Of a DNA stretch of 64,000 nucleotides, positions 451 through 61,944 are shown one piece after another (the stretch's first letter is position 1; each line of letters opens with the position of its first letter). The notes under the pieces were generated by a model. The model worked only from the letters and a program-made list of their open reading frames with translations, was not told the DNA's origin and did no database searches. The translations under genes were made by a program, and so were the position numbers. The DNA lies in assembly GCA_035221665.1 (NCBI GenBank), contig CM069164.1, positions 19,220,001-19,284,000 on the forward strand, given 5' to 3'. The stretch comes from Okamejei kenojei. Taxonomy: Eukaryota.

Positions 451-670
451 AGCAAAACCAAGCTTTGAATTATGACTTGGCTGTTCAATAACTACCTTGA
501 TAGCACAGGGTGGAGCTGGAGACGCACTGAATATTAGTACTCGGTTGCAGATGGCACAATAACACCAGGAGCCTCCTTCATCCACAGCGAGAGAGTTACA
601 TGTAAATAGCAGTTATTTCTTGAGTTGGGCATTCTTACAAGAAGCTGTCACAGAACTATCTTTACAGATA

Positions 671-3200: not shown

Positions 3201-3684
3201 ACCAGTTGGATATAACTTGCTACGGGAGCAGCACATATCTGTGGTTTTCCATCTGCCAGCATCTGACATAAATATATCAAAAGGACACTTGTCATAGCAA
3301 ATTAACCATGTTTGGCACCAGGAAAATTATATTCAAAGGGCATTCTGGATCTGACCCAGTCTCTGTGCCTACACAACACATCTAATCTGGTCCATGGGCT
3401 TAAGATGAATGTGTATTGATTGTAGAAACTATTTTCTAAAGCACATCCTGCATACTTTTCCCATTTTCCCTAGTCCCTTCTTTCTCAGCCACTCGGTTAC
3501 TCAACTCCAAATTCCATGTATTAGTTTTACTGTCTAGGATTCCGGGGAAAATGAAGATGTTAAAATAGCAAGGTGCACCATGAAAGAAAACTTCTCAGAG
3601 AGAATGTTTGTTTTCGACGTGCCTACTCTCAGACGGACAAATTGGACATAGCCTGCTCAATGATGAACAACATAATGATACATA

Positions 3685-3950
3685 TAGACACAAAATGCTG
3701 GAGTAACTCAGCGGGACAGGCAGCATCTCCGAACATAACTCAGCGGGTGAAGCAGCATCTCCGGAGATAAGGAATGGGCGACGTTTCGGGTTGAGACCCT
3801 TCTTCAGACTAGAGTCAGGGAAGAGAAAGATATAGACGGTCTCGACCCAAAACGTCACCCATTCCTTCTCTCCAGAGATGCTGCCTGAGTTATTCCAGCA
3901 TTTTATGTCTATCTTTGATTTAAACCAGCATCTGCAGTTCCTTCCTACAC
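3685..3950. mobile_element. PLE 3'-end fold-back (inverted-repeat) insertion, with an intact hammerhead-like core on the - strand at 3780-3807
   Basis: The left arm gacacaaaatgctggagtaactc...cttcttcagact is the reverse complement of the right arm, which ends gcagttccttcctacac. Confidence 0.8.
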
Positions 3951-4518
3951 ATAACAAAATATATATTGACTTCAGTTGGTCACATGGTGTAATGATGTAT
4001 ACGTCCAATATTACTTAAGCCCCATGTGTCTCAGGATTCCTTTCCTGAACCATTTGTGACTTGTCAGAAGGATGAGCTTATGTGGATGTTCACTGGGACA
4101 AGGGTCGGGGTACAAATTCTGAAACCTTCTAAACTCAAAAGATGCGTGACTGTTGCAAAATGTTGCAAGCTGTCTCTCTGCATCCAATCTGTACTTGTGA
4201 CCAATAATGGACAGGAAAATCTGCTAAGGTCCTTCAAAGACTGAGTGCAAAATTCACATTTGCTAATGAAGGTTAAAGGGCTAATAAAACCGTTAAACTG
4301 TTCAGTGGCTTTTTTCAAGCACAGTTTTCAGGACGTCAACAGTTACGCTCGTAAATAGATTGCTAACAAAACCAGCATTTATTGCCCATTTCAAACTGCA
4401 CGTGGGAATGTAGTGGTGAGCCACATTCTGCACCACTGCAGTCCAATGGGGAAGGTGTTCCCATAATGTTTTATTGGGTAGAGAGTTCTAGGGTTTGGAC
4501 CCAACAACAAAGGAACTG

Positions 4519-4650
4519 TGTAGGTAAGAACTGCAGATGCTGGTTTAAATCAAAGATAGACACAAAATGCTGGAGTAACTCAGCGGGACAGGCAGCATCT
4601 TTGGAGAGAAGGAATGAGTGACATTTCGGGTCGAGACCCTTCTTCAGACT
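4519..4650 (-). mobile_element. PLE 3'-end fragment truncated at the ribozyme edge
   Basis: Same unit; gaactgtg duplicated at 4513-4520 and 4651-4658. Confidence 0.8.
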
Positions 4651-12256: not shown

Positions 12257-12355
12257 ACGTGAAAAGTCTGGAGAAAATAAGAATACAGCATGATTTTCTT
12301 TCACTAATCTACATTAGTTGAGGGTGTTAAATAGAGGAGATTAATTTATCGAACA

Positions 12356-12808
12356 TAGACACAAAAAGCTGGAGTAACTCAGCGGGACAGGCAGCATCTC
12401 TGAAGAGAAGGAATGGGTGACGTTTCAGACTAGTCGGGGCAAGGGAAACGAGAGATATAGGCGATGATGTAGAGAGATGAAGAACAATGAACAAAAAAGT
12501 AACGATGATAAAGGAAACAGGCCATTGCTAGCTGTTTGTTGGGTGAAAACGAGCTGGTGCGACTAGGGTGGGGAATGGATAGAGAGAGAGAGTGGGAATG
12601 CTGGCGTTACTTGAAGTTGGTGAAATCAATATTCGTACCACTGGCTCAGTTGTAAGCTGCCCAAGCAAAATATGAGATGCTGTTCCTACAAATTGCGTTT
12701 AGCCTCATTCTGACCATGGAGGAGACCTAGGACAGAAAGGTCAGTGTGGGAATGGGAAGGAGAATTAAAGTGTTTAGCAACCGGGAGATCAGGTAGGTTC
12801 AGGCGGAC
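12356..12808 (-). mobile_element. PLE fragment: GIY-YIG endonuclease C-terminus plus 3' UTR
   Basis: The reverse strand encodes VRLNLPDLPVAKHFNSPSHSHTDLSVLGLLHGQNEAKRNL*EQHLIFCLGSLQ...NIDFTNFK*, followed by the shared 3' unit. Confidence 0.8.
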
Positions 12809-14664
12809 CTTCTTTGCTCCTCCTTCGTCCTCATACACACGCACACACACAATCTGTTTTTGCTACATCTTGATTTTACCTAAATGGCCTCTCGGGGCAC
12901 ACTTGTGAACCCTGATAATCTAGGTCTAATACAATGTGCATAATTATGTTGTATCTGGGGCTCAGCGGTGGACGAAGCTGCTCCTGCAATGGTGGGAGGT
13001 TGCGAATTGATGTGAGCTGAAGTCTCCTACTCCCATCGCAATCTCCAACAGCCCGCAGATTGATCAGGCTGCTGGACCAGCAGCTGTGGGAGAGACACCA
13101 GGCTGGTACAACAGCTAATAGTGCAGGTACATGGCTAATGCTGCTGCCTTAATATTGCAGTTTGGGAGCCCACTCTTACACAAGCAGTCCTTCAATTCAT
13201 TCAGCCAGCCAGCTGTGAGGATGTGCAGGCAGACGAGGTTAGTTTAAGTAGGCATGGTGTTGGAGTCAGACATCGTGGGCTGTGGGGTCTAAACGCGAGC
13301 CGTACTGTTCTCTGAACTATGATTCCACCAGCCTTAATCTCAAGGTCTGCGGAGGGCACTCCTCACTCCACTAGCTCCGTGTCATGGGACGCTCAGCCTG
13401 TTATACGGAGCCGGTGTTGTGACGTCTCAAGGGCAAGGAAAGTATTTTGTGGAGCCAGAGGAACACTGAAAATAAACCTATTAGTCTGCCCTATCTGACA
13501 TTTGCTGTTCGTTACAGGCAAGTGCACATGTTGGCAGAGGAATATACTTTTAGTTGCTGTAGATTTAGTTGCTTAGAATCTCCACAATGCCCAACATTCA
13601 TTTCCGTGTGAATGACATTCAGTTGCGTGTGAATATATTCAACAATTCAGAAAGGCTGAGGTACAGTTCTAGGAAGCTCAGTGGAATGCTCGAGTGAGAA
13701 ACGATTAGGATAAAGCTTCAGATCGAGAAGGGACTCCTGGACTGCTGGTACATGTGCGTTAACTGTTACAAGAATGCTTCACACATGGGCGAGGGCACCA
13801 TCACCGGTGCCCTATGTGAGAATGTTACACTGGAGTCTTTTCCTGGACAACGCGTACCAGATAAGCCTTTGACAGAGATTAAATTCACCTTTTATCTCGA
13901 GCACCGGATGGGTGTGCTTGGGTTTCTTACTTGTTTAGTATTAAGGACTAAAAACAAATTTCTACATTAAAGGTTCCTCATGAATAACGGAGGTCAAGAA
14001 AAGCAAACTAATGCAGTTACATAAACATAGAACGGTACGGCAGAGGAACAGGGCCTTCGACCCACAACATCTGTGCTGAACATGATGCCAAGTTAAACTA
14101 ATCTCTGCCAGCATGTGATCCATGCCCCTCATTCCCTGCATATCTATGTACCTAGCTAATCATAAGCCTCCTAAACACCCTTCATAGTTTGGATCAAGAC
14201 TGTGCTGCCACTCCGCTGAGCAGAGGATGCTTTTACAAATACAATCAGTGCTAAAAGTGTTGTTCTAGCATAATGTGGAGTGGTGCAGGTGACAGTGATA
14301 CTGAGCTATAGACCTTGAATCAAACGCTGCCCACAGTTTGTTCTCCCACAGCAAAGAATCTCTCTTCTCAGTACTTTACTCAGTAACAGCCAGCAGCACC
14401 TTCTAGCCTCTTGACTCTTGTGAGTGTTTAGAAACCAGGACTTTGAACACGACAATTAATTGGTTTGCTGTTGGTGACAGCAAGCAGGGTATCGGTGTAT
14501 AAAGGGAAATAAGAACTTCATTTAATATTATTGTGGTTAATCAATTACAATAATTTGGATTCACCTCCTCAACTACTGGGATTATGATCGATGATGAAAA
14601 ATACATGAATAAATTGGACAAAAAAGACATATTTAAGAAAGCCACAAATTTACAGTGATGTTAT

Positions 14665-20079: not shown

Positions 20080-20420
20080 CTTCCTCTGGAGCCGCAGTGC
20101 CTGCCTGTTCACCATCTCCCTTTGCACCTTCCAGGGCTCCAACTATTTTCCCACCTCCTCCAGTTGCGTATGCCGTGCGTGCAGCTCACCGGGTCACCAC
20201 TGTGGGAAGACCTAACGCAGATTGGGTGACAGGTTTTAAGAAGACTTGCACTGAGTCTGCAAGCGAGACTCCAAGTTCTGGTCATCTCCCACTGGTGTTC
20301 CCCATCCCGTTCCACTACACTGCTCCAATAAACCTCAACCTCATGAGGAGCAGCGCCTCCTCCTCTGACTCGGTACTTTACAGCTGTGCACATTCAACAC
20401 AAAATTCTGTGAATTCAAAG
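20080..20420 (+). mobile_element. Decayed PLE GIY-YIG region
   Basis: GKT*RRLGDRF*EDLH*VCKRD...EEQRLLL*LGTLQ matches the GETKRRLGDRFAEHLRSV...EEQHLIFRLGTLQP pattern. Confidence 0.65.
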
Positions 20421-21982: not shown

Positions 21983-22295
21983 AGGTGGTGCAGCGGTGGA
22001 GTTGCTGCCTTACAGCACCAGAGACCCGAGTTCGATCCCGACTACGGGTGCTGTCTGTTCCTAGTTTGTATGTTCTCCCCGTGACCGCGTGGGTTTTCTC
22101 CGGGTGCTCCAGTTTCCTCCCACACTCCAAAGATGTATAGGTAGGTAGGTTAATTGGCTTCTGTAAAAAAGATTGTAAGTTGTCCCTGGTGTGTAAGATA
22201 ATGTTAGTATACGGGGTGATCCCTGGTTGGCACGGACTTGGTGCGCTGAAGGGCTTGTTTCCATGCGTTATCTATACAGTCTAAAGGTAAAGTAA
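21983..22295 (+). mobile_element. V-SINE (HE1-like), near full length
   Basis: A/B boxes (gagttcgatccc), V-domain and tail. Confidence 0.88.
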
Positions 22296-22440: not shown

Positions 22441-22756
22441 NNNNNNNNNNNNNNNNNNNNNNNNNNNNNNNNNNNNNNNNNNNNNNNNNNNNNNNNNNNN
22501 NNNNNNNNNNNNNNNNNNNNNNNNNNNNNNNNNNNNNNNNNNNNNNNNNNNNNNNNNNNNNNNNNNNNNNNNNNNNNNNNNNNNNNNNNNNNNNNNNNNN
22601 NNNNNNNNNNNNNNNNNNNNNNNNNNNNNNNNNNNNNNNNNNNNNNNNNNNNNNNNNNNNNNNNNNNNNNNNNNNNNNNNNNNNNNNNNNNNNNNNNNNN
22701 NNNNNNNNNNNNNNNNNNNNNNNNNNNNNNNNNNNNNNNNNNNNNNNNNNNNNNNN
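22441..22756. other. Assembly gap (316 N)
   Basis: N run flanked by CT-rich sequence. Confidence 0.99.
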
Positions 22757-23338: not shown

Positions 23339-25011
23339 ATGCGTGCTTAATCCATCTAGAGATCAGGGGAGGTGATCTCCCAACACCAGGTCTCAGTGAC
23401 GTGGGACTGTTGCATCTTCACACGTCCCTGCTGAACGCCGGGCTGGATATGCCGATACAGAAATCCCACATTTTCTGTGACTCAGACAGGGAAGTGCCGT
23501 GAGTTGCGTGTGGAATGACAGGTTTGTTCTGGACAATACAGCCCATGGACGCAAATGCTGCCTGGTCAGTGGCTTTAAACAAAACAAATGACTGCAAATA
23601 TGGAAAAACAGAAACATTAAATAACAAAACTGTAAGTGAGTCACAACCTGAAAGAATGACCTGCTGACGTGTTGGGTTTGTTGATCTGGAGTCGATTATT
23701 GTCCGTTAAAAACTTGAACCAAAATATTTGATGCCAAAACCAGAATCGGATGTACATATGTGAAATAGCAACCGGTGGTGACCCGAAGATTCAGTTTTTA
23801 AAGCATTGTTCGGTTATCATTCTCTTTCTGGTGAATGGGAGTTCCAGGCATCCTTTTATCAGGTGCTGATTATTATAACTTGGATGGTTCCAGCATTCCC
23901 TTTGGAGAGCTGCCAGGGCTCGATGTCTCTGTGTAATGTTCTGCAGGAGTTTGCTGGGGTATGAGCATGTTACCTTTTGGCAACAGCTTGGGATTGAGAT
24001 TGTTTTGGTTGTCGAAGGGGGGGTTGTGAGCTGGTGGGTATGAAAGAGATAAGATGTGGAATCTTGGCACGGGATATTCCCACAAGCGGTACTTTCTGCG
24101 AAAGTTTGCTTTTGTTGGTTTCTAATCTTCCCAATGTGATGCTGTGTCTGGCATGGAGGAGAACAAATCGCAGCTGATATCCTAATCTCGGAAAGAGTAA
24201 AAGCCTACAAGCTCTCTGATATGGTTTTAGACAGAACCCCTCCCACTCGGAGCAGGATAGTTCATCTATTGTTACTTTCCTCTGTTGGTTCTCGCCTATA
24301 GATTTAACCATTGATTTACCAGTGCCCAAAGATAACTATTTCAACTGTAAAAGTGTGTTGCAGTGGAAATGAACAAAACTCCCATTGAGAGAGGAAGCCT
24401 GACCTTAATTTGAACCACTTGGTGAGGACCAAGTCATTCAGCCTGAAGTTTTTTTTCACATGTTACCATTAAACAAAATTACAATAAATTGATTGTGGAG
24501 ATATGGTTTCAGTTTTCATCGCTATTTATTATATTCATGCTATTGGCAAACCACTTGCCTTGGGGCCTGGCTGCTCACACGGGGTAATTATTTTGATTGT
24601 GTTTCATGTCCCACCCAAAATCTCCTATATCATCCCAGCCTACACTCCCTTGCAGAATAAAACCCCACCTCTCCTCAATGCATTTTTGTAGCTCCAATAT
24701 CTCTCTCATTCTAATATCTCTCACTAATATCTCCCTCACTCACCCTACCGTGTATTAATTGGACATCACCTTTGAGATGCATTTTCTTTGCTTCATTGAA
24801 AGCTTCACGACCCAGACCCACTATTTGCTTTTCCATTGCAATCTATCTTTGCCGGCAATTGCAGGCTTAATCTGAAGATCAGAGTGCTTGAGGAGCTCAG
24901 TGGGTCAGACAACATCTGTGGAGAGAAAGACAATGTTTTGGGTCGATCTGAAGCGTCACCTGTCCGTTCCCACCACATGCTGCATGACCCACTGAGTTTA
25001 GTTAAGAGGTG

Positions 25012-37160: not shown

Positions 37161-37364
37161 TAGACACAAAAGGCTGGAGTAACTCAGTGGGACAGGAAGC
37201 TTCTCTGGAGAGAAGGAATGGGGGGGGGTTTCGGGTCGAGACCCTTGAAGACCCGAATCGTCACCCATTCCTTCTCTCCAGAGATGCTGCCTGTCCCGCT
37301 GTGTTACTCCAGCTTTTTGTGTCTTATCGTCGGTTTAAACCGGCATCTGCAGTTCCTTCCTACA
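37161..37364. mobile_element. PLE fold-back insertion
   Basis: Inverted arms tagacacaaaaggctggagtaac / gttactccagctttttgtgtc; ends gcagttccttcctaca. Confidence 0.8.
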
Positions 37365-38102
37365 AAACGCTACCAGTTTGCCTGACCGCCCCTCTTGGCC
37401 GGATGCAACGGAGTGTGGAATTACGGGAGCACTTCGCTGGTACTGTGAAGATTGCACTGTGATTGAGCCCACAGTACAGCACCAGGCCCTTTGGCCCACC
37501 CCAGCCATGCCTGCCGTCATACCTATTTATAGTAATCCCATTTAATCTAGGTACAGTTCCAAGCAGTGGAAGGAAGTTAAATCTGTGATTGTAGTTTTTA
37601 CATTTCATTAGAAACAAGGTACTGCAGATGCTGGTTTATAGAATGAGTTTACATTTAGTTCCTCCGTTTCAAATATGAAGAATGAGTGACTGGGAAACTG
37701 GGCGGGTTCTCTTTAGAGCAGAGGAGGTTAGTTAGGAGAAGATTTGAGTGGAATGCTTAAAACTATTTGCAGTTTAAATCAAGAAAGTAAGGAGGTGTTG
37801 TTTTTGATGAAACGGGAGTGTCAGTACCTTGAGGGCACTGGGTGAACAGCTAGAGGGAAGATGAGGGTTATTTGTAAGAGTGAGTACCATGATCTGGAAT
37901 GCGTGGCTTGAAAGAGCAATGTAACCAGACTCGCTCAAGTTTAGTGGAGTATTGCATAATATTTTTTAATTAAAAAAATATTACTATGTTCATCAAATTT
38001 TTGTGTACATTTATTTGCCTATGCTTTTAGTACAAGCCATGTTATTCCATTGATAGTATACCAGGATGACATTGGATTTTGTATATACACGTGTTTATGT
38101 AT

Positions 38103-39285: not shown

Positions 39286-40769
39286 ATGGCAAAGAGCACA
39301 CTTTCCGCTTATTCTAAACGTTGGAGAAGAACATTAAGAAACTTTGTTTTCTGAAATCGTTCTCAATGGAAACCATTTCCACTCCGGCTGATGTTTGCAC
39401 GAGAGCTAACTCTAAATACGTAGTATTGTTAACCTAATCCTTTGAAATTTTGCTCATTGAAATCAACTCTTAGATTTGTTGCATTTCACATGTATTTGGT
39501 GATCCATTTGAATAACCGTTCAGAATTCCGGTCGCAGTGACCTCACTTGTTTGTGATATACAGGGAGCCTCCTGTTTTCCGCCAGAGCTAAAAAGAAAAA
39601 GCATTGTGAACATTCAAAATTTGTATGAACGCAGACAATCCTCTGATCGCTTCAAAAACAAAATATTTTTTTTGTAAAGAGCAAATCACAAACTTTAATG
39701 GCTTTCTTTGGAAAAGCCAGAGCGTGCAGAGAAAACTGATAGTCAGCTGAGATCTGATGTTGGTTCGCTCAGGATCTCCACTTCCATGTGTGTATTGGGC
39801 TGGAGAGTACACACTGGTGCATCTGACCTCTGGGTCATCATTGAGTCTTGGAAGCTCTGCAACTCCAGCCTGACTTTTCATACAGCAGTGAGTGCACTGA
39901 TGCAGAGATCCAGAACTACAAGTTGGCTGGAGATTGGGCGTTGATGCATCCAAGCTCTGGCTCGCCATTGAGTCTTGGGAGCTCTGCGACTACACCCCAA
40001 TTTCCATGCGTAACGATGCAGAGGTCTGGCTGGATCCCCTTTTATGCGTGTGACCAATGCTTTTTTTCAACTGGTTTGAAGACTACTGTTGTTAACACAT
40101 GCAGGGTTAAAATTATCGCTATACGTGTTGGCTGGTGACAGAGTGTGGCTGCTCTGCAGCTTACTGAGCTGAGGGCTGGATGTGCCTTATGCCCATGCAT
40201 TCTGCTTTACACCAGTCACCGCTGATACATCCAGCAACGGCATGGCTAGCATTAAAACAACGTAATTTAATAATAATTAATTCAAATTAAATTGACTTTT
40301 AAGTGGAAGTATTGAAGGTTTTTAAAAAAGTTCATATACTTTTTCAAGGTTTTCCAAATATCTACGATATTTGGAGACATTTGGAAATGGTGATCATTTG
40401 TCTGACGTCCTGAGCTATCAGACGGTCATGGTGGGCCTTGGTGTTCACTGCCTGGGCCACGTTACTGCTCCAAACTGCTGCACCTCATCGCCACAACAGC
40501 AATGCCATCATCGTGATGAGGCAGCAGAATGTTGGATAGTCTTGCGCTTATAGAGTCCACTTTATTGTTTTGACATGGAGAGAGTCATTCAGACGTGAAG
40601 TCTCCCTGTGTTGGATGATCGTGATGGCCTGAAGAACTGGGTGGTGGTAGAAAGAATGGTTCTAAGAAGCCAGCCTCAGAATGAGGATCCACTCCCATTT
40701 CATGATCCCTGCATGTTTCTGCGCCTCCTCTTTCAGCATTCTGAAGGGAAAGTTCTCTCAGCAGCTCCC

Positions 40770-41142
40770 TGGTCCTCTCTTCCCGCCCCTCCTCCTGGCA
40801 CTTTCCCTTGTAACTGCAGGAGATGCAACACCCGTGCTTTTAACTCTTTCCTTCCCAAACACTCCTTCCAGATGAAGCAGTGATTCTCTTGTACTTCATC
40901 CGATCCAGTCTGCTGGGCTCACTGTTCTCACTGTGGTCTCTTCCCAATTAGTGAAACCAAAAACGCAGATTGGGCGCTTGGCGTGTCAAACACCCACAGG
41001 ACTGGTTCGAAGCTTCCTGCTACCAGACACTTTAGTTCTCCGTCCCATTCCAACTCTGACCTCTATCCGTGACCTCCCAAACTGTTGTATGGGGCCCAAT
41101 GTAAGCTTAAGAAATAGAACCTTCAGTCTGGGCTTGTTGCAA
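40770..41142 (+). mobile_element. Decayed PLE Cys-knuckle plus GIY-YIG region (resumes at ~42633-42660 after the Rex1 insertion)
   Basis: PGTFPCNCRRCNT...PKHSFQMKQ*FSCTSSDPVCWAHCSHCGLFPISETK matches the PLE C..C..C linker and F.CTS.NVIY.I.C..C...YIGET motif. Confidence 0.72.
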
Positions 41143-42632
41143 ACAGAAAAGCCGGAAATCAGGACCGGAAAATGCTTCCCCCTCTACCCTCAAGCTCTGT
41201 GCCGAACAACTGGCACCAGTCTACACAGACATTTTCAATCGGTCACTGCAAACCTGTACTGTCCCTGCCTGCTTCAAAGTCTCCACTATTGTTCCCGTAC
41301 CCAAAAAGCCAAGGATTATTGGTCAATGACTACTGGCCTGTCGCACTGTAGTCATGAAGACCCTTGAAAGACTTGTGCTGGCCCACCTGAAAAATATCAC
41401 AACCCCCCTACTGGACCTTCTGCAGTTTGCATACCGGGCAAATAGATCAGTGGATGACGCAGTCAACCTTGGCCTGCACTTCATCCTCAGGCACCTAGAC
41501 CTCCAGGGGACCTATGCAAAGATTTTGTTTGTGGATTTTAGCTCTGCATACAACACCATTGTGCCAGAGCTACTACACTCCAAACTCTCCCAGTTGACTG
41601 TGCCTCAACCCGTCTGTCAGTGGATCATCAACTTGCTGACAGACAGAAGCACCATGTGAGGCTGGGAAAGCACATCCTGGACCCGCAGACTCTCAGCATA
41701 GGAGCACCGCAAGGCAGCGTACTCTCTCCTCTCCTCTACTCTCTCTACACCAACGACTGCACCTCCACAGACTCCTCTGTCAAGCTTCCCGAGTTTGCGG
41801 ACGACACAACCCTGATTCGACTGATCCAGGATGGGGAGGAATCTGCCTACGGACAGGAGGTGACACAGCTGGCGTCCTGGTGCCGTCGCAACAACCTGGA
41901 GCTCAATGCTCTTAAGATGGTGGAATTGATTGTAGACTCCCCCTCCCCTACTCCCACTCACCATCAACAACACCACAGTCACATCTGTGGAGTCATTTAA
42001 ATTCCTTGGAACCATCATCTCCAAGGACCTTAAATGGAAGGCCACCATCGACTCCACAGTCAAAAAGGCCCAACAGAGGATGTACTTCCTGCGGCAGCTG
42101 AGAAAACACAATCTGCCACAGGCAATGATGGTCCAATTCTATATGGCCATCATAGAGTCTGTCCTCACCTTCTCCATCATGGTCTGGTTTGGCTCAGCCA
42201 CCAAGCACGACACCTGGAGGCTGCAGCGCATCATTCGATCGGCTGAGAAGGATGTTGGCTGCAACCTTCCCTCCATTGGCGAACTGTACACTCCAAGGGC
42301 CAGGAAGCGAGCAGGCAAGATCATCTCTGACCCCTCTCACCCTGGCCACAAACTCTTTGAATCACTTCCCTCTGGGAGCCGACTCCGGACTGTCAAAGCT
42401 GCCACAGCCAGACATAAAAACAGCTTTTTTCCACGAGTAGTAGCTCTACTCAACAGCCAAAAGTCTGTTGCCTCCTTTTGCTCTGGTAATTTATTTAATT
42501 CTTCACGTTTAAATTATAATGTTTTATTTTTAATTGTCTACTGTATATCGTGTTGTTACTTGCGAGCAAAGCACCAAGGCAAATTCCTTGTTTGTATACA
42601 TATTTGGGTAATAAAAAATTTCAATTCAATTC
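41143..42632 (+). mobile_element. 5'-truncated, frameshifted Rex1/Babar LINE (RT region to 3' end)
   Basis: MKTLERLVL...LQFAYRANRSVDDAV...FVDFSSAYNTI; GAPQGSVLSPLLYSLYTND; FADDT; ESFKFLG...KKAQQRMYFLRQL; AATAAA plus (AATTC)n tail. Confidence 0.92.
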
Positions 42633-43176
42633 TTTCTTTAACAAGTTCAGGTAATTTAGATTTTCTCTGTCCAGACTGGCCATTTCTGCTGTACATCATC
42701 CATCTGACCTTGCAGGTCAGGGTTGGAGGAAATGCCCCCATTGTTCCTTTGTTGTTTCCTCTTTCTCTCTCTCTAAATGATCTTGTTAACCCATAAACCA
42801 GATGGTTTCATCAGCACTTTATCCCCACACAACCCTGACATCAGCCTATATGCTATAAATCCAGGCTTCCAGCACCTGCTGTTTGACTATGTTCTCTTGG
42901 CCATCTTCTGTGCTTGGCTGGATGTTTTTTGGATGTCATTAGTTAATGATCCCTGAATGTTTCCAGGTATCACTCTCTAACCCGACCCTATCACATCTAC
43001 TGTGTTGTCATGTGAAAAACAAAAGTACCATTCAATCTGAGTGGGAATAATTTGATTAAATGAATGACAACTCAATTCTATTAGTCAGTATTTTTGCAAG
43101 GATTTTGAGATCATTACTTTGAGATCATTGAGTCGTAGTTTCATCCATTTGGACATGGACATGTGCATGACTTTAC

Positions 43177-43441
43177 GAATTACTGGCATGAACATTGAAT
43201 TCTCTCAATTCTGTTAACCCTTGCTGTCTCCTCCCCTTCCCACCTCTCCCTCAGCACTCGGGCTCCTCCTTTTTCCTTTCTTCCCCCCCGCTTCACCCGC
43301 CCCCCATCAGTCTGAAGAAGGGTTTCGGCCCGAAACGTTGCCTATCTCCTTCGCTCCATAGATGCTGCTGCACCCGCTGAGTTTCTCCAGCATTTTGTGT
43401 CCCCTCGATTTTCCAGCATCTGCAGTTCCTTCTTTAACAAC
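43177..43441 (+). mobile_element. PLE 3' end with intact hammerhead-like core (43312-43339) and 13-bp TSD
   Basis: GMNIEFSQFC ORF end; tgcatgactttac at 43164-43176 and 43442-43454. Confidence 0.85.
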
Positions 43442-43739
43442 TGCATGACTTTACATATTACTTAGAAGGTATGGATGAAACCTTTTTCCTAATTCTGTTG
43501 GTTCACAGCACCCCAAACTGCAGTCATATCCCTTCCAAGAATTATACTAAAACAAAACTTAGTTATCACTTATCGCCCACTTTTCCAATGTTGTCAAGCT
43601 TTTGATTGTCCTTAAACGCATGCCTGTAATATTTTTAAGGCAAGTTCCAGGAATTATCACATCGCTTGATACATGCTGACCAGGCGTATAACGTCTCTTA
43701 GAGTTATGGAAACTAGTGTACATTCGCTGAGCAGAAATA

Positions 43740-44059: not shown

Positions 44060-44360
44060 TTTTAGTTTTAGTTTTAGAGATACAGAGTGGAAACAGGCCC
44101 TTCGGCCCACCGAGTCCGCACCGACCAGTGATCCCCGCACGTTAACACTGTCCTACACAGACTAGGGACAATTTACATTGATACCCAGCCGCTTAACCTA
44201 CAAACCTGTACGCTTTTGGAGTATGGGACGAAACCAAAGATCTTGGAGAAAACCCACACAGGTCATGGGGAGAACGTACAAACTCTGTACAGACAAGCAC
44301 CTGTCGTCGGGATCGAACCCGGGTCTCTGGAGCTGTAAGGCAGCAACTCTACCGCTGCGG
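44060..44360 (-). mobile_element. V-SINE, well preserved
   Basis: ggaaacaggcccttcggcccaccgag...gggatcgaacccgggtctctg...gcaactctaccgctgc. Confidence 0.9.
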
Positions 44361-44858
44361 CTCTGTGCAGCTCCGTGCGCTCGCTTAAGCTAGTGTGTAA
44401 AAAGTTTATTCTCACAATGAATACAATGTTACTGTTGTACCTGCCCAAGCAGAGTTGAGTTCGGGTGAGAAAGTGTTAAGCTGAGGCAGAATGCTGTTCG
44501 CTCGGCTTCTGTGCACCCATTGTATTAATGTGGAGACAGGAAGCTGGCCATCCTTCCTTCTAACTGGCTGCTTTGTTTTTGTTCTGGAACAGCAAGTGAA
44601 AATATCGCAGTATTGAATTTCAATGACGGCCTTAATTGCAAAGCACCCACATATGGTTACAGATGAGCACATTCTCTGCAACTAGTTGCTAATTTAAAAT
44701 CATTTCAGATATATTCTTGAAGTGCAAAGGTTTTGAATTATGCAGGGTATCACGTTATTTACTATTCCAAATAATTGGTCAGGAATAATCAATTGTAGAA
44801 TAGCTTCTGTGGAATAATGTAAAAAGTAAATGTCACTCCTAGATTCAGCAAGCATTAA

Positions 44859-45050
44859 ATGGGGAGGAATCTGCCTACAGACAGGAGGTGACACAGCTGG
44901 CGTCCTGGTGCCGTCGCAACAACCTGGAGCTCAATGCTCTTAAGACGGTGGAATTGATTATAGACCCCCCCTCCCCTACTCCCACTCACCATCAACAACA
45001 CCACAGTCACATCTGTGGAGTCATTTAAGTTCCTTGGAACCATCATCTCC
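44859..45050 (+). mobile_element. 192-bp Rex1 fragment duplicating 41831-42022
   Basis: Ungapped alignment by eye gives 187/192 identity. Confidence 0.9.
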
Positions 45051-45563
45051 CCAATTCCCCCTCCCATTCCGTATCCGACCTCTCGGTCCTGGGCCTCCTC
45101 CATGGCCAGAGTGAGCAACACCGCAAGTTGGAGGAACAGCACCTCATATTCCACTTGGGGAGTCTGCATCCTCTGGGCTTGAACATTGAATTTTCTCAAT
45201 TCTGTTGCTGTCTCCTCCCCTTCCCACCTCTCCCTCAGCCCTCGGGCCCTGGCATTCCCCCTCTCTCTATCTCTCTCCCCCACCCTAGTCACACTAGCTT
45301 CTCATTTTCACACCACAAACAGCTTACAATGGCTTGTTCCCTTTATCATCGATACTTTTTTGCATATCTTTCATTCATTGTTCTTTATCTCTCCACATCA
45401 CCGTCTATATCTCTCATTTCCCTGATCCCCGACCAGTCTGAAGAAGGGTCTCGACCCGAAACGTCGCCTATCTCCTTCGCTCCTTAGATGCTGCTGCACC
45501 CGCTGAGTTTCTCCAGCCTTTTGTGTACCCTCGATTCTCCAGCATCTGCAGTTCCTTCTTTAA
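45051..45563 (+). mobile_element. PLE GIY-YIG C-terminus, 3' UTR, hammerhead-like motif (45438-45465) and terminus
   Basis: NSPSHSVSDLSVLGLLHGQSEQHRKLEEQHLIFHLGSLHPLGLNIEFSQF; ends gcagttccttctttaaca. Confidence 0.88.
45438..45465 (+). ncRNA. Putative minimal (PLE-type) hammerhead ribozyme core
   Basis: CTGAAGA-A-GGGT-CTCG-ACCC-GAAA-CG-TC. Conserved core boxes and stem II are present; helix III is palindromic ACGT; stem I is only ~2 bp. Confidence 0.6.
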
Positions 45564-46299
45564 CATTAAATGGGGCATTGTGGTTTGATCCTTTCTTGAA
45601 AATCCGGTTTGCAGAACTAGGTACACGCTAGCTGTGTGGGAAACCTTCTTGAGGTTTTCCGTCTGGTATCCCTCCCACTCGCTGCTCATCTTGTGAGGCT
45701 GAGTAAATATTGAGACTGGCAGCACACCCATTGATCGTCACCCCAACATTTGGTGACGAAAGATCATCACCCTGAACTGTTGGGTCCGGTTCCTTGCTCA
45801 CAGATGCAGCATCACCTGCAGTGTGTCCCCAGTACTCTGGGCTTCGCTTTAGATGTTTGGAACACATTTGCATTTACAAAGGAAGGGATTAGTTTGATGT
45901 TTATTATGGGCACATGTGCTGAGTTACAGTAAAAAACGTTGTTTTGCACTCTGTCCAAACAGATCGGCTATCCATACATAGATACAAACAGTCCGAACTA
46001 AAGGACAATTGATAGAGCAAAGAGGAAGGTTCAGAGTGCAGGATATGGTTCTTAGCAATGTCCTGATAACTTGGATGTTGAATTGATAAAAATAATTAAC
46101 TTCTTTATAATTTGATTGTACGTTTGGAGTTTTTTGTAAATTAAAAAATGTCCAAAAGGTCACTTGGTTGAATAGTCAGTAATACACAGATACAGGCTGA
46201 TAGGGAGCAGCAAACATTCAAACCATATACGTGCCTAGGCAGAGAGCAACCCGACAAGAGGGAGTCTAACCACACATTCTTGACATCCAAGGGCATCCA

Positions 46300-46407
46300 A
46301 AAGGGATACTGAGTTGGATGATCAGCCATGATCATATTGAATGGCGGTGCAGGCTCGAAGGGCTGAATGGCCTACTCCTGCACCTAATTTCTATGTCTAT
46401 GTCTATG
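46300..46407 (+). mobile_element. CR1 3' tail
   Basis: Near-identical to 27670-27770. Confidence 0.8.
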
Positions 46408-46624: not shown

Positions 46625-47556
46625 CAGCAGTAGCTCAGAGGCTGGGAACCCTTAAGATGACTTGCCTCCTGATTCTCCACACCATTATGTGAGGAAGGTT
46701 TTGGGAAACTCTCCACTTGCCTGCATAAGTGAACAGCATTTAAGCCGTCCATTAATCTCCTGAAGCAATCTGTTTAGTGACAAGCTAATCGCCATCCTGA
46801 ACTATCCCTCCCACCCGTTGCCAGTACACTGGTTGTATTGTGTGTTATCTTCAAACTCTTGTATTTACTTGCCAGTATATGAAAACAGCACTTCTAAAAC
46901 TTGTGTCCACCAGGACAAAGGCACCAGGCGCTTCGGATCAGTTGTGAAATAACACAGTGTCCTGATGGAAAAATATCAGTTTCTTCATCACCGCTGGGTC
47001 TAGAGATCTTGGATCTTTGTCTACAGCAGCCCCTTGGGAATTCCTTCACCAGGAAAGATGTCCAACTTCCCAAGGGCAGCTCGGGTTGGGCAGACTATGC
47101 TGGCATTGCTAGTGACTTCCATGTCCTATTTTTTAAAAATAAATCAAATCACATTGAATGGCAGTGCTGGCTCGAAGGGGCGAATGGCCTACTCTTACAC
47201 CTATTGTCTAAAATGTGTTCTTCCCTAAAAAATCTGGGATTGTTTTCAAATTTTGCATTGCCCTATAACTTAATTTAGTCTCATTGACCAAGGTCACATA
47301 AATAACGTATTGTTATTTCCCCCTTCTGTGTTATCCCCGGATTGGTGTGGATTTTGTCTTCTCTTCCCTCTCTTCATTGTGGAATCTCAACATGGCAGAG
47401 AAGTGATGGGTTGCTTTACATTCCGTTCAGATTTCCAATGAACAAATAAAGGTTGGATTCTTGCACATGTTGTTGATGAGGAGTCATTGCTGGGGATGGG
47501 GGAGGAGCTTGTTGTGCTGGCTGATCAGTGCAAATAAAGTTCCACTGAAGGCTCGT

Positions 47557-47764
47557 GTTAAAGAAGGAACTGCAGATGCTGGAGAATCCTTTTTTGCATA
47601 TCTTTCATTCATTGTTCTTTATCTCTCCACATCACCGTCTATATCTTTCGTTTCCCTGATCCCTGACCAGTCTGAAGAAGGGTCTCGACCCGAAACGTCG
47701 CCTATCTCCTTCGCTCCTTGGATGCTGCTCCACCCGCTGAGTTTCTCCAGCCTTTTGTGTACCC
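47557..47764. mobile_element. PLE insertion with internal inversion; intact hammerhead-like core on the + strand at 47672-47699
   Basis: 16-bp TSD tccactgaaggctcgt at 47541-47556 and 47765-47780. Confidence 0.88.
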
Positions 47765-48060
47765 TCCACTGAAGGCTCGTCATGTTACTGCCATCTATTG
47801 ACCGTGACTGGGATTTCTCCATGGGGAACACATTATTTATTGTTTCTCCAACAGGGACCGAACCAGTTTGTATTCTCCACTGTTGTTGCTATTGCTACTC
47901 AGTGTCTACCAGAGGATCTTCAGAGGGATTGACATTTCTATTTTCCAGTTGCCGCCTAAACTAAAAGAAGCACAAAAGTTCAGCGTTGGAATCATTAGAC
48001 AGTTTTGATATGATATAAAAAATACATGTATATTTCTACTCTGCTCAAATTATTTGAATT

Positions 48061-50645: not shown

Positions 50646-53267
50646 GTAACTAAGCCAGTTGGAGTGACGCGATAATGGATTAAACTTGTTGCAATTGATT
50701 AGCCATGGGAATGGCTGTCTTGTCTATGGTGTAAGAATCTGCCTCATAAAGCTGCCACTAAAAGGGCAGCCAATATAAATAAGTTGACAAAGTAACTGAT
50801 AAAATTCTAGGCATTAATATCGTCTGTAAGTCAGTATTGATTTTCCTCTCCCTGTGAGCAACACAGAGCAACCGGCCGTTGTATTATTCAGCTGCCTTGT
50901 GTTTGGAATAATGTGTTGACGTGACCATAAAAAGACATTGGTTGGGTTGGCTGATATATTCCACACCAGGCGATGACAATGGGTAAGTTGCTCAATAAAT
51001 ATTCCTTGTCTAACGTGCTGTAAAGTTGCAGATCTGCAGCCGATTGCCTCACTCGTAAATATACACGTCAACACATACCGTGTCTGATAAGTTTGCTTAT
51101 TAATTTTGTGAACTGCCACACGATTCATTAGCTCTATTCCTCTCCAAAACTAATGTGTGAAAAAAGTTGAAAGGTTCCCATTAAAACATTCCTGCGAGTC
51201 CAGAGGTTTCTTGGCTATTCAGTTGGATCGTCTTGACCCATTCCCTACAACCAGCTTCCTGCCTTGCTCCACAGCCCTCAGCAGCAGAGTGGCAGCTTGA
51301 AGTCGAATTATTATGCTGCAATATGAGACGATAAAAGGTGCTCTATTCTCAGCTTGCTCGTGTGTGATACCATTGTGACACACAGCATAATTGGGGGGCA
51401 CAGTACAGGTCGCAGTGACCTTGAACTTTACTTTTATTTGCAGCAAAGTAAAATAGTTTGAACTGCAGAGTGAAATTGCTCAGATTTGGATTCAATAGCC
51501 ATTAAATGACATGTTGAATCATATATCACTTTCGTCTTTACCAAGCTAACTTGGTTTGAGTTTTAAGTCCTTCGATAATAATAGGTTATATGTGTGCTTA
51601 AATAAAGATGGTGCAACCAGTATGAATGGCGAAGGCAATAATTGTTATTAACACCGTATCGGTTTCATTTTGGACAGGCTACCAGTGATGTAACTTAGTT
51701 AAGTGGAGTAACACTCAACTCTGTTACTGATCACCAGCGATCTCCATTTTCGCCAAATACTCTTGTGTGTAAAGTTTCAACACACTAGGTCTTACAGCCA
51801 AAAGTTCTAGCCATATCCACCCATCTAATCTGTTTTAAGACTGAATCAATGCTTAGCCCACAACATTAAAGGTTTATTGTTCCTGCATAATATTGTTTTG
51901 AAATATTATATTTCAAAGGGAAAACAATTTCTTCATTCGTATGGAATGATCAAGCAGGCTGGGACATTTAATATATCCAAACAGTGAAGCCAGCATCTCT
52001 CCAGCTGATTTCATGCCTCATTTAAGAGCTGCTTATTTCCCTTGATTAGTTGCCAAATCATAGACTAAACCATTCACGAGCTACAGAATTTTACATAGTG
52101 TTTCTGTCATTTGATCTTCTGGCATGTAATTAAAAGAGTCCTTTTAACCTCCAGTGCAAATAGGTTTTGAATCGGGGGATTATGGAAAGGGGTTTTATTC
52201 CTCCTGACTTTGCATGTTGAGAGATTTGAACTTCTTGCTCCATAAAAATAATCCCTTTAAAATTGGATTGTACTTAATTTCCATTAGTTCGTAAAATGAA
52301 GATTATGTTGCATCTTGGCTTGTGTGGAGATTCTTATGTGACTTGCCTACTTGTGTGTTTTTTCCTGATATGTACGTCTGTTCAAAACAACTACTTGTTC
52401 ATTTTTGATATTCATAATCTGGTTGCATATTGAATAATATAATTAGAAGGTTCAACATTTCCTTGTTATGTCAATGTTTATTGCTTTTTAATGCACCGAG
52501 TGGGTGTGCATGATTTATATTTGACTGGAAAATATCTCGGTAAATTGTTTGAAAATGGAAGTTTTGTCTTCATTGGAAAGTAGTGGCTGAGTTCAAGGGG
52601 CCAGGTTGGCAATGTTTTTTGATATGCAAATGCATTCATGAAAGGGTTTGATAATGAAAGGGTGTGATGTTCCACTAGTACTCACTTAGCGATTTTTACC
52701 TTCAGCATATTACCCCGCAGTTAGAAAACGTTAGAAACTAGATTAATATAATGCGTGGAATTTATCAGGGATGGTATGACATTATAAATGCCAAAACTCT
52801 TTAGGCCAAAGAGTTTTATGTACCACACAAGCTTCGTCTCACTTTTCAGAAAGCACCAATGCATGTGATAGCAAAACTTGCATTCTGCATTGTCAAAGAT
52901 ATAAGCTTATAAATGAGTTGTTAATTAGACCCCTACATACAGTACCTACTGATGTAAATGTAAATTAACCTATCGCATTATTCAGTGAATTGTGTAGTTT
53001 TCCACCAAAATCTGACGAAAAGTGGTCATTATGTTTTCACTGTTTGTGGCATTCTTCGTTGCACACACAATAACAGCTATTATACAGCAAATGGAATTAG
53101 TTGGCTAAAAACACTCGGGCCACTGTGAGGTACAAAAAAAGATGTTTTGTAAATGCATAATTTTTCTTATTTTGGATCGTAGATTAGTTTCTGTAAGCAG
53201 CTTTATCCGTTTTATAAATATCTTTATTAGAGAATAAATGTGTTTGACAGTTTCGGTGTGTTAATGT

Positions 53268-53496
53268 TTAAGAAGGAACTGCAGATGCTAGAAAATAGAA
53301 GGTAGACAAAAATGCTGGAGAAATGCTGGGTGAGGAATCATCTGTGGAGTGAAGGAAATAGGCAACGTTTCAGGTCGAAACCCTTCTTCAGACTGAAGAA
53401 TGAGCTCAGTCTGGTTTCGACCTGAAACGTTGCCCATTTCCTTCGCTGCATAGATGCTTCCTCACCCGCTGAGTTTCTCCAGCATTTTTGTCTATC
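53268..53496. mobile_element. PLE fold-back insertion with 16-bp TSD (1 mismatch)
   Basis: ttcggtgtgtt(a/g)atgt at 53252-53267 and 53497-53512; the centre reads cttcttcagactgaagaa. Confidence 0.85.
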
Positions 53497-54316
53497 TTCG
53501 GTGTGTTGATGTAGTGTTTTGTGTAACTGACAGCGACCATCATTAAAATGATGGGAGTTGAACATATTCAGCTGAATCTTGGACATCTAGAACCTTGGAC
53601 ATCTTCTTGGACTCATCGAGCTCATGGTCATGACATGAGAACCACGAGATAGGACACTGGCTCAGGCTTAGCATGTTTGCTGGAGTTTGTCAAAGTAAAT
53701 ATGGTGAGCCTCAGTCAGAACTCATCCCAAGCTCCGTCTGTTTAAGAAAGACTTTCATTTATCCAGCACATTTCACAGCTGTCACAGTTCTTTGTAACCA
53801 ACGGCATGCTTCCTGTTGTCTGATCACTTTTATAAGGAACATGGCAGATTAATTGCATAGCAGAGTCCCACAAAGGTAGTCCAGGTTTCTGGTGGTATTG
53901 ATACAAACTATAGGAATTTGCCATTGTCACCCTGTGAAGAGGCAGAGACTTTGGGACTTTTGCGCAAGACTGGTACATCTTCTATGGAGATCCCATACAT
54001 CCTCATAGGCATCCATCTCCAATGATGTTAATGAAAATCACTTGAGCTGATTTGAATTTAGGGTAATCCTCTATGGCCTACCCTGAAAATGTTTTCTGAA
54101 TTCTCACTAGATCTTCATGGACAGCTTTCATTAAGGTCAACAGCTAGTGCCACTGGGGAATTTTGGAGTGATTTATTCAGGGTGGATATTACCTAGTGTA
54201 AGAGCAGGTAAACTGTGTCGCATTACCCTAAGAAAAGCCACTTGGTTGGCAACATACACCACACCAGAATGTTGGGTTGACAGAGCCATTATCAGTTGTG
54301 AGTGTGAAGCATGTAC

Positions 54317-60061: not shown

Positions 60062-61620
60062 TCATTTACCTGTGATAGGGGAAAAGACAGGTGAGTGAAT
60101 AACCAAAGTGGTGGTGAATCTGGGTGGATGGACACTGGTGAACAACTGTATATATTGTGATGTAGTTGAGGGTTAAAGTGGAGTCTGGTTCATCTTAATT
60201 GGTGGAGGGGAGGGGGTGTTTTATGCCTGGAAACCACAGCACAAAGGGATCTGATTCACACTCTGGACTACAAAAGGTTCTGATTACTTGCGGTACATTT
60301 CTTGAACTATCGAAGATGATAATTCGTTCCAGACAGCAATCAGGAGGAAATTAGTTGCCATATTACAGTAAACCATCATAATAACGGAAGAGTGGATTTT
60401 GGTTATAGTGGATCAAGGCTCCAGTAGGACCCCCCTCCCCTCCACCCCTACTTCCCCACTTCTGCCAAGTATCCAACAACCTGGCACCAGGTGACGTTCT
60501 ACTGGTTGCGGGAGTGGACCTAACCCTCCCCCAACACCACGTTTCTCCCCTCCCTTTACCCCCCTCATTCGGATACAGTGGACAATCAGCAATAACGGAC
60601 ACCATCCTCTTCCCCTACTCAGTGGTCCGTAATTAAGAGGGTTTACTCTAATAATAAAATTAACTATTCCCCTAAATATTACAAAGTAAAGGGTGAAATT
60701 CAACACAATGAAAAGCAATTCGGCGGTGTGTAATATTAAAGCAAGAAAACATAGCATCAACTTGCAGACAACCAATTTGATTTGAACTAAATTTGGGAGT
60801 CAAGAGTTATTTTAAATGCAGTTAAATTATAATTAAATTTAAAAATGTGTTTGAATAATTAGCCCAGCGGTTAGAGATCCTTGGAACAATTATGGCTGTC
60901 CACATTGTGCTTGCTTTCCAATTGGTCTGAATGTTTAAGACCAACCCCAACGTTAGAGTTCACAAAGACTTTTAGCATCCGATGTGAGCGACTCAAGGCT
61001 GTTGAAAGTGGAAACAAACATGTCTATTCTTTGAATCTTGAATAAAGTTTGAATGCAGTTCGATACGTTTCATTTGTCTTATCTGCTGATTGCAGATTCG
61101 TGAAATTCCATTTGAGCAGTTGCAGTGTACTTGATCACTTTGTACAAAGCCGGAAGGTCACAAGCCAATTCCAGCGAGACAATTCTGGCAAACTCTCAAA
61201 GTGCTTACACTGACTGCAAAAAGCCCTTTCCTGCAACCAGAACCATGCATAAAGGCCATTGTCATTAAGCTTCAAATGTGAAGTACAACAAAAGCGGAAG
61301 GGACCCGGGAACACTGGTGAGGGCACATTGAGAGAACTCTGTTTCTACATTTATAATTCCAGGCAAGCTTTGTAAAAAGAAATTCCATTCCACACACAAG
61401 TACAATTTTCTATCAACCTCAGGATAAATACAACTGTTCATGTGTACCAGATGTTAATCCCTTCTAAAGTCAACTTCCTGTCCTTTCACTTCCAATATTT
61501 TAATCCATAGTGATGAATTTTGAATGTTTTACAAGCTGTTTCATATTATCCCTAATACTAAACAACTGTTTCTTTTAGATTTTCACCCCATCATTCCCAT
61601 TGACCAATAGTCAAGGTCGA

Positions 61621-61832
61621 AGGTGGACAAAAAAGCTGGAGAAACTCAGTGGGTGAGGCAGCATCTATGGAGCAAAGGAATAGGCGACGTTTCGGGTCGA
61701 GACCCTTCTTCAGACGTCCCGCCCCGAAACGTCGCCTATTCCTTCACTCAATAGATGCTGCCTGACCCGCTGAGTTTCTCCAGCTTATTTGTCTACCTTC
61801 GATTTTTCCAGCATCTGCAGTTCTTTCTTAAA
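61621..61832. mobile_element. PLE fold-back insertion; intact hammerhead-like core on the - strand at 61686-61713; 16-bp TSD
   Basis: caatagtcaa(g/t)gtcga at 61605-61620 and 61833-61848; ~75-bp inverted arms. Confidence 0.85.
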
Positions 61833-61944
61833 CAATAGTCAATGTCGAGTGTTTCTTCTTCACTTGCTTCATTGGTCTGATGGTAATAAGAACATTTTAT
61901 CGTGGAATATATACAGGGTGTTCCTTTAGTCAAAGAATCTCAGT

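Follow-up and report, generated by a model that had tools for sequence, protein, structure and literature searches.

A minimal type-I hammerhead motif in the pseudo-LTR of a probably Neptune-type Penelope-like element of a skate, with dispersed copies probably made from uncleaved RNA

Introduction

Minimal hammerhead ribozymes are a motif class already known from Penelope-like elements (PLEs), and neither the 56 motifs of Fig. S3 nor Table S1 in PMC4209133 include any from cartilaginous fish. A cleavage-and-circularisation model was proposed in that work, and the function of PLE hammerheads was termed unclear by Craig et al. (10.1101/2021.04.23.441226). As reported in PMC4209133 and PMC6765202, PLE minimal hammerheads did not cleave as monomers and were slow as dimers. 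The ribozyme of PAc, the Poseidon element of Anolis carolinensis, requires its own protein for cleavage, PAc inserts without cleavage, and its tail reflects two internal start sites of the reverse transcriptase (RT) (PMC11167929). An inverted copy and a tail of 30–40 nt have been described for PLEs (10.1101/2021.04.23.441226, PMC3846280), and Penelope of Drosophila virilis has an internal Inr/DPE promoter (PMC2377424). Related hammerhead-bearing retrozymes were reported by Li et al. in one chondrichthyan (10.64898/2026.07.22.740005).

Here, we analyzed a stretch of 64,000 nucleotides from the skate Okamejei kenojei (hereafter, the window), in which a first-pass annotation had pointed out a hammerhead-like motif within an abundant repeat. 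A minimal hammerhead in a PLE is expected; what is new is the pattern of the 5' ends of its copies and the overlap of the motif with promoter-like boxes. We found no description of the skate motif, or of a promoter within a PLE hammerhead, in the open-access papers searched. With 43 pieces in 64 kb, the family is dense enough to analyze the start and stop points of its copies statistically at base level, and copies that start before the ribozyme, with none at the cut, offer an inexpensive way to test the cleavage-and-circularisation model on genomic sequence.

Results

The repeat derives from a PLE, probably of the Neptune type

The window lies in the gene for cingulin-like 1 (CGNL1, + strand), as an exon peptide matches skate and ray CGNL1. 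Seven CGNL1 exons were mapped at 7458–50648 (+), covering about residues 750–1114; the remainder of the protein did not map within the window, which is probably entirely within the gene. The focal PLE copy (Table 1) is in the sense orientation to CGNL1, in the intron bounded by the exons at 38872 and ~49235. It sits in a LINE remnant that stops at 45050 and resumes with eight matching bases at 45566, with ~7 bp of the target lost, and no target site duplication (TSD) was found at this copy. Its 3' end, first placed at 45563, is at 45565. The LINE encodes an RT with a FADD motif and has a long copy at 41145–42630 (+), which appears to interrupt an old PLE ORF remnant, and a short one at ~44860–45050 (+), which was the target of the focal PLE. 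We take this LINE to resemble Rex1-type elements.

Table 1 Positions of the focal insertion, its parts, and related copies in the window
Feature	Position	Strand	Details or basis
Focal 5'-truncated Neptune-type (putative) PLE copy	45051..45565	+	Boundaries set against the longer LINE copy (near 41990-42060)
C-terminal GIY-YIG remnant (HF-like to EF end region)	45053..45199	+	Homologs, weak Pfam, tblastn, translation
Pyrimidine-rich 3' UTR / upstream part of pseudo-LTR	45200..45432	+	Differs between subfamilies
5'-end hotspot, Inr-like CCAGTCT	45433..45439	+	A+1 = 45435; also YAG acceptor-like after a pyrimidine tract
Stem I, 5' strand (G2.2, U2.1)	45436..45437	+	2 bp, with 45466-45467 as partner
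Core box C3-A9 (CUGAAGA) and the extra A	45438..45445	+	Extra base in PLE consensus CUGANGAH
Stem II, 4 bp GGGU/ACCC, CUCG loop	45446..45457	+	G10.1-C11.1, near-palindromic
GAAA box; helix III, palindrome ACGU (45461-45464)	45458..45465	+	C17 at 45465
Putative cleavage site	between 45465 and 45466	+	
Core-promoter-like boxes	45452..45466	+	CGANC at +18..+22 (45452-45456); RGWYV 4/5 at +28..+32 (45462-45466)
Predicted competing hairpin	45443..45478	+	45443-45447 with 45474-45478; 45452-45455 with 45463-45466; folding
Downstream stem-loop	45486..45547	+	45486-45493 with 45540-45547; encloses the short 3'-end site near 45527
PLE tail	45528..45565	+	~40 nt between two 3'-end clusters
Sister insertion	47541..47780		Core 47672-47699 (+), inverted tail piece 47556-47585 (-), 15-bp TSD
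Copy with ORF end, stop codon and short UTR	43164..43454	+	Core 43312-43339 (H17 = U), 13-bp TSD
Solo module	4517..4650	-	8-bp TSD
Second ORF-linked copy	12346..12814	-	Hammerhead core deleted
Head-to-head pair	3682..3952		Intact core 3780-3807 (-)
Head-to-head pair with TSD	53263..53503		Core 53364-53391 (-)
Head-to-head pair	61608..61837		10-nt TSD, intact core 61686-61713 (-)
Old remnant of the same ORF family	40647..41145	+	Cys linker (CNCRRC; in 40647-41063) and N-terminal endonuclease half; tblastn E 1e-15; frameshifted continuation

The 49-aa GIY-YIG remnant of the focal copy, in which the stop codon of the copy at 43170 is missing, had 16 homologs among 37 candidates, the best being a skate protein with 86% identity. 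Pfam GIY-YIG matched six of the 16 homologs weakly (E 0.001–0.05, all under the gathering cutoff). The longer homologs contained an RT-like YIDD, a CxxxxCxxC linker, CxxC, YIGET, HF, and the same C-terminus, with the YIDD segment of P0004 and P0011 upstream of this shared end. The remnants in the window align to homologs that have CxxC, YIGET and HF, in agreement with the C-terminal GIY-YIG endonuclease (CCHH motif) of endonuclease-bearing (EN+) PLEs. The Cys linker that is characteristic of Neptune was detected in P0003, P0015 and the window remnant near 40800–40830.

A zinc-finger linker with a C-terminal endonuclease is found in Neptune and Nematis (Craig et al., 10.1101/2021.04.23.441226), and Neptune and Poseidon are the only PLEs reported from vertebrates (10.64898/2026.07.22.740005); this layout and clade range, rather than an RT tree, therefore suggest a Neptune-type element. 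No RT remnant or full-length element was found within the window, so we infer both the clade and the tandem structure of the element. The initial assignment of the repeat to a PLE 3' end is upheld by the GIY-YIG C-terminus and by the insertion architecture described below. Two repeats had been reported as linked to GIY-YIG, and the C-terminus is indeed attached in both (45053–45199 and 12650–12814), but the copy at 12356–12808 lacks the ribozyme, as an 18-nt deletion joins CTGAA to ACGTC. A heavily decayed GIY-YIG-like remnant was also detected at 20198–20416 (+; tblastn E 0.004); no ribozyme module was seen to follow it. Separately, an annotated skate neuromedin-U receptor model (P0002) ends in the PLE GIY-YIG C-terminus, reflecting either exonisation or a gene-prediction artefact.

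The core belongs to the PLE hammerhead class

The first-pass annotation was exact about the letters of the motif, with 45438–45465 (+) reading CTGAAGA-A-GGGT[CTCG]ACCC-GAAA-CG-TC, flanked by GT and GC. The core boxes CUGANGA, GAAA and NUH are in type-I order, an unpaired base lies between positions 9 and 10.1 (an A in all 19 arms covering it), and stem II starts with G10.1-C11.1 and has 4 bp, within the class range of 3–7 bp. The palindrome at 15.2–16.2 (ACGU) permits a dimeric helix III, and the motif is located in the PLE pseudo-LTR (pLTR), 240 nt 3' of the GIY-YIG C-terminus. Its proposed identity as a PLE minimal hammerhead agrees with the consensus of Cervera and De la Pena 2014 (PMC4209133 Fig. 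S3). We conclude that 45438–45465 is almost certainly a homolog of the PLE hammerhead, and the skate copy is a further member of this known class.

Stem I is as short as was noted at the outset (GT with GC, 2 bp only). Helix I has 2 bp in six of the seven intact loci and does not reach the published descriptor minimum (minlen=3). This minimum is a search setting and not a family boundary, because PMC4209133 itself counts the 2-bp helix I variants of D. virilis, Culex and Oikopleura as PLE hammerheads. With a helix I of 3 bp as a requirement, descriptor searches overlook one of the major repeats of a skate genome. The flanking letters, pyrimidine-rich on both sides, do not extend stem I, and an extension via the inverted partner arm needs an arm beginning at N1.1, which none does.

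A structure descriptor, the kind of search that had been recommended, was run on the window with both core boxes, a stem II of ≥3 bp, pairable 15.2–16.2, and UH. It returned seven loci (3807-, 4647-, 43312+, 45438+, 47672+, 53391- and 61713-), which are copies of one repeat and hence not independent events; 100 dinucleotide shuffles gave 0.17 loci on average and never more than two. The 28-nt core was found within five edits at 16 loci of the window. None of the 14 Rfam matches of the window at E ≤ 10 was to a hammerhead family, i.e., the motif is not a canonical Rfam hammerhead; matches to microRNA families at 3738–3903 and 37181–37305 were rejected, as these are inverted pairs of the hammerhead repeat.

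Subfamilies share the ribozyme, and inserted copies decay neutrally

Using an nhmmer profile built on 17 window copies, we detected the hammerhead module (~135 nt) in 43 pieces totalling 4109 bp, or 6.4% of the window. The module is the commonest repeat in the window, with a self-BLAST depth of 33 vs 10 for the next family; its description as the most abundant short repeat was thus correct, and the estimate of 25–30 pieces was too low. An older copy at 19837–19861 (-), missed by the profile, keeps both boxes (CTGATGA) with a different N7 and stem II, has a T-tract and CCAG upstream, and ends directly after GAAA. The sister insertion at 47541–47780 and the focal copy share 96.7% identity across 181 nt.

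Other repeats were also noted. The second commonest one (44070–44370 and about ten like loci, e.g., 2483–2697 and 21985–22238) is ~200–300 nt long and SINE-like, presumably an HE1-like SINE. The 3' ends of another LINE family, with short terminal tandem repeats, are found at 46290–46400 and at like loci (25342, 27670, 47148 and 59878), and we assume this family to be HER1/CR1-like. Assembly gaps (N runs) are at 17140–17294 and 22441–22756, and the copy at 17327 begins 32 nt past the first of these.

The three subfamily termini reported earlier all exist, and families B and C form clades (support of 0.99 and 0.91, respectively), whereas A is not resolved as a clade. A comparison of the consensuses of A, B and C, which had been named beforehand as a test of core conservation, bore out the expectation: 2 of 32 ribozyme columns differed, compared with 25 of 94 downstream (Fisher p = 0.014). 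The first differing column is N1.1, where either A or G pairs with U2.1, and the second is G12, changed to A at a CpG in family C, which has few copies. The conservation of these columns could reflect promoter function instead.

The inserted copies show a different picture. A complete core was present in just 7 of the 43 pieces, and G12 was changed to A in 8 of the 28 arms that could be aligned. Both C11.1-G12 and C15.2-G16.2 are CpG sites, suggesting that CpG decay removes the ACGU palindrome and G12, the general base of the hammerhead (PMC6155905). Outside CpG sites, mutations in the inserted copies were about as frequent in the core (21/204, 10.3%) as elsewhere, i.e., downstream (185/2062, 9.0%; p = 0.52), so no selection was found on the inserted copies and the cores decay neutrally.

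The claim that sequence variants keep stem II paired was not borne out as support for the ribozyme. Two-sided changes were absent from all six pairs of stems I and II (including the four of stem II) across the 28 aligned arms, where there was little variation to work on, the three subfamilies sharing a nearly identical stem. The covariation analysis that had been proposed, run on the window arms, found no covariation above shuffles for stem II, the downstream stem or the competing hairpin. Among the variants that had been cited, CTCA and GTT are CpG-type transitions, probably produced by deamination, and TTCG is a change in the loop. Stem II was lost by deletion in three arms (12429, 6158+ and 24943+) and possibly in a fourth; the arms with most or all of it deleted are 12346–12429 (-), 6158–6234 (+), 24943–24999 (+) and 37250–37367 (+). 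Some of these deletions fall between short direct microhomologies, and they look like skipping of the hairpin by a polymerase.

Insertions have the architecture of EN+ PLEs

A total of 12 inverted pairs were identified, all head-to-head and none tail-to-tail. In 11 of them, a single arm enters or spans the ~40-nt tail and the other arm stops short; this combination of an inverted 5' copy with a tail at one end is that of EN+ PLEs. Direct repeats of 9–15 nt flank five of the 12 pairs, and among 12 other insertions two had TSDs, plus one weak 7-mer. The 3' ends fell at model positions 87–109 in 13 of the 43 pieces and at 125–136 in 22, with eight elsewhere. Paired arms were 77–93% identical in the nine pairs compared, which does not separate fold-back from the joining of two cDNAs.

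Only two same-strand adjacent pairs were found among the 43 pieces, neither with two cores, i.e., without the tandem arrangement of retrozymes. In a partial direct tandem at 670–871 (-), a 5'-truncated tail piece is followed by a module beginning at the ribozyme, an arrangement that forms a pseudo-LTR.

Many copies begin at the front of the ribozyme and none at the cut

The 5' ends of 42 arms (the 43 pieces minus one internal duplication) were entered by hand from the alignments, approximately for seven long copies, and in windows picked post hoc 28 of them fell within a 33-nt stretch that begins just ahead of CUGA and ends at C17, where 3.0 were expected from the rate elsewhere. By model position, 15 were at -2 to +4, 13 at 5–23, and none at 24–41, around the cut. 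Counting one end for each of 25 insertions (after exclusion of a weak partner arm and of five single pieces with low scores), 12 started in a 7-nt window just upstream of or at CUGA (0.23 expected), and 17 started within the ribozyme (1.7 expected, or 3.5 by the UTR rate alone; p about 2e-7). None of the 42 arms started at the cleavage site, which is informative because the cleaved 3' product, if copied, would give an arm of ~100 nt, long enough for detection. In the solo copy at 4517–4650, the start delimited by the 8-bp TSD is either the A of CAGT (Inr A+1) or the base preceding it.

The best reading of these ends is that the copies were made from uncleaved RNA, probably starting 3 nt before the core. 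For the ends within stem II, self-priming on an antisense template, by which PMC3846280 explains palindromes at inverted PLE junctions, remains a rival. A stable hairpin that blocks the RT was rejected, as ends would be expected 3' of the hairpin and none are there. The palindromes at rotifer pLTR 5' ends (18 and 38 bp, described in PMC3846280) might themselves be hammerhead stem II.

Promoter-like boxes overlap the ribozyme

The 5'-end hotspot matched YYANWYY at 7/7 positions in eight of nine copies tested. Counted from A+1 at 45435, the original MTE was matched at 8/10 positions (+18 to +27); of the revised MTE as given in PMC5580651, the CGANC half was exact and the CGG half (+27..+29) unmatched. 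Only 3 of 1472 Inr-like sites in the window had Inr, MTE and DPE together, and all three were in the hammerhead repeat. By eye, TCAGTY was found within ~15 nt upstream of CUGA in 5 of the 56 motifs of PMC4209133 Fig. S3, against a rough expectation of <1.

Transcription start at the hotspot is therefore our preferred reading. Its fullest form is that the hammerhead doubles as a Pol II core promoter, that the ribozyme lies at the mRNA 5' end, and that the ~135-nt copies are run-off (strong-stop-like) cDNAs. We offer this only as a tentative model, short of even likelihood, because the test was post hoc and the consensuses come from flies. Stem I would then be limited to 2 bp because the ribozyme is at the extreme 5' end of the mRNA. 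If the model is true, a run-off cDNA arises when the RT, priming internally, begins within the 5' pLTR of an RNA that has not been cleaved, the inverted 5' arm is the same cDNA product primed from a second nick, and the copies record cleavage off the insertion path and map the transcription start and both RT sites to the base.

The same boxes would also fit a catalytically dead hammerhead relic, with the 30-nt block conserved as an internal Pol II promoter and/or protein-binding site. An Inr at the hotspot, CGANC exactly at +18..+22, RGWYV at 4/5 positions at +28..+32, and the restriction of the triple to the hammerhead repeat are all consistent with this, as are the internal Inr and DPE of D. 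virilis Penelope (PMC2377424), the 2-bp stem I, the competing hairpin, and the lack of covariation. A promoter, however, leaves CUGANGA, the extra A and the symmetry of stem II unexplained, and the older CTGATGA copy keeps both core boxes yet matches the MTE at only 3/10. The thresholds were set after the site was seen, the MTE/DPE consensus is derived from Drosophila and the DPE is rare in humans (PMC5580651), the CGG half of the revised MTE is unmatched, and a 2-bp helix I is shared by other PLE hammerheads (D. virilis, Culex and Oikopleura; PMC4209133). Altogether, we regard the relic reading as unlikely.

An equally doubtful reading is a splice-switched ribozyme, in which the YAG before stem I is the acceptor of a 5'-UTR intron and the spliced exon gives an activating stem I. 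Short copies speak against it, as they retain the final AG or G of the presumed intron and have no upstream exon letters in common; copying from spliced RNA was rejected as the origin of the short copies for want of such a common exon. No donor or stem I-lengthening exon was found by eye. The YAG does directly precede T(T)CTGA in seven of eight copies that keep the UTR, despite otherwise different UTRs, and 15–17 of the 20 upstream bases are pyrimidines in the six such copies tested, but pyrimidine richness runs through the whole UTR. D. virilis Penelope provides a precedent (PMC4209133, PMC2377424). This reading is compatible with the best explanation, i.e., copying of uncleaved RNA, and does not exclude it.

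Predicted folds disfavour activity in the present copies

The predicted competing hairpin pairs the GAAGG and CGAC stretches with letters beyond the cut and hides the core. The probability of stem II was 0.007 in the focal copy, ≤0.007 in four of the seven intact copies (including the focal one), and 0.07 in another; in copies 61713 and 3807 it was 0.40 and 0.49, respectively, thus misfolding is not universal. Stem II was predicted (P 0.96) only while the RNA stops short of passing the cut site. The modelled active dimer was ~15–23 kcal/mol above the minimum-energy fold, in calculations that ignore tertiary contacts and are uncalibrated against a known-active minimal hammerhead. Downstream, 45466–45563 had a folding z of -2.4, and 90.6% of cells were paired in the downstream stem.

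The folding predicts that the active state is disfavoured in these copies and, because the competing hairpin hides the core, that any activity would need a dimer or protein help. Cleavage by a free monomer is hardly to be expected, while measurable cleavage as a dimer, with an extended helix III or with protein, has about an even chance. Where they are inserted now, the copies are probably idle. The proposal of a genome with working motifs at high density found no support, given 7 intact cores in 43 pieces, neutral decay, no covariation, and the rarity of the predicted active fold.

The intact cores are three in sense and four antisense to CGNL1, and the arms between mapped exons 15 and 12, respectively; no strand depletion of the copies was found within CGNL1, nor any hint of purging by the host, and the copies look inert for this gene. 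Three intact sense cores (43312, 45438 and 47672) lie within 4.4 kb in the intron flanked by the exons at 38872 and 49235, where a dimer in cis is possible in principle, and the dispersed copies might then be active, high-density ribozymes that cut host pre-mRNA. We consider this very improbable. The cores decay neutrally and are not depleted on either strand, the arms of inverted pairs are on opposite strands, the active form of the 45438/47672 dimer was modelled at -6.7 vs -29.4 kcal/mol, and PLE minimal hammerheads described in PMC4209133 are slow even as dimers.

Discussion

With the motif, its link to GIY-YIG, the PLE insertion architecture, the conservation among master subfamilies and the neutral decay of copies as observations, we think it likely that the window contains a minimal type-I hammerhead in the pseudo-LTR of a skate Neptune-type PLE, and that its copies are fossils made from uncleaved RNA. 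As suggested by the PLE literature, helix III would need two copies that pair via the ACGU palindrome, and cutting after C17 would thus require a tandem transcript and probably the element's protein, as in the anole Poseidon ribozyme. The likely task of the ribozyme would be to trim tandem or read-through master transcripts. The RT may prime at two internal sites ~60 and ~100 nt past C17, which delimit the tail, one for each nicked target strand. Its template would be uncleaved RNA, with copying usually ending where the ribozyme begins or within stem II, and head-to-head pairs would result from the joining of two cDNAs. The focal copy and the other scattered copies would be fossils that seldom fold actively and are losing G12 and the palindrome through CpG decay.

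A chance resemblance inflated by copy number is scarcely credible, even with seven loci from one non-independent family, no Rfam match and no covariation, as the motif sits where PLEs carry hammerheads, the extra base, G10.1-C11.1 and the palindromic 15.2–16.2 emerge outside the published descriptor (PMC4209133), and the old divergent copy at 19837–19861 keeps both boxes with a changed N7 and stem.

Among known systems, the skate motif resembles the PLE minimal hammerheads shown in PMC4209133 Fig. S3 in having CUGANGA with the extra A, a 4-bp stem II from G10.1-C11.1, a 4-nt loop, and GAAA-C-G-U-C. The pyrimidine-rich upstream sequence, the position 3' of the endonuclease domain, and the occurrence mostly as solo copies, with pairs on opposite strands, are shared as well. 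The skate stem I, however, has 2 bp, where the descriptor minimum in PMC4209133 is 3 and 3–5 are typical. Like the non-LTR retrozymes of Li et al. 2026 (10.64898/2026.07.22.740005), the skate copies are short non-coding units related to PLE pLTRs with a type-I hammerhead, but retrozymes are described as head-to-tail tandems with a ribozyme per unit, whereas the skate copies are solo or head-to-head, with one partial tandem (670–871) and no array.

The pLTR of D. virilis Penelope, as described in PMC2377424 and PMC4209133, also has a 2-bp helix I adjoined by a YAG, an internal Inr/DPE-type promoter, an inverted 5' copy, and a tail. The D. virilis start precedes the ribozyme by ~125 nt, with a 75-nt intron in between, whereas the start suggested for the skate is 3 nt upstream; and the promoter-like boxes of the skate are inside the ribozyme, unlike those of Penelope.

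The Poseidon element PAc of A. carolinensis (Frangieh et al. 2024, PMC11167929) differs in clade and in that its ORF begins inside the ribozyme, whereas the skate protein appears to be of the Neptune type and no conserved ORF start was seen by eye in the module. Protein-assisted cleavage is a feature of PAc (PMC11167929), and the skate element is known here from its sequence. In both elements the hammerhead is shortly upstream of two sites of RT start, mapped in PAc (PMC11167929) and agreeing with the two skate 3'-end clusters 40 nt apart; these sites define a tail of 30–40 nt, and the copies of the skate element, like those of PAc, would have been made from uncleaved RNA.
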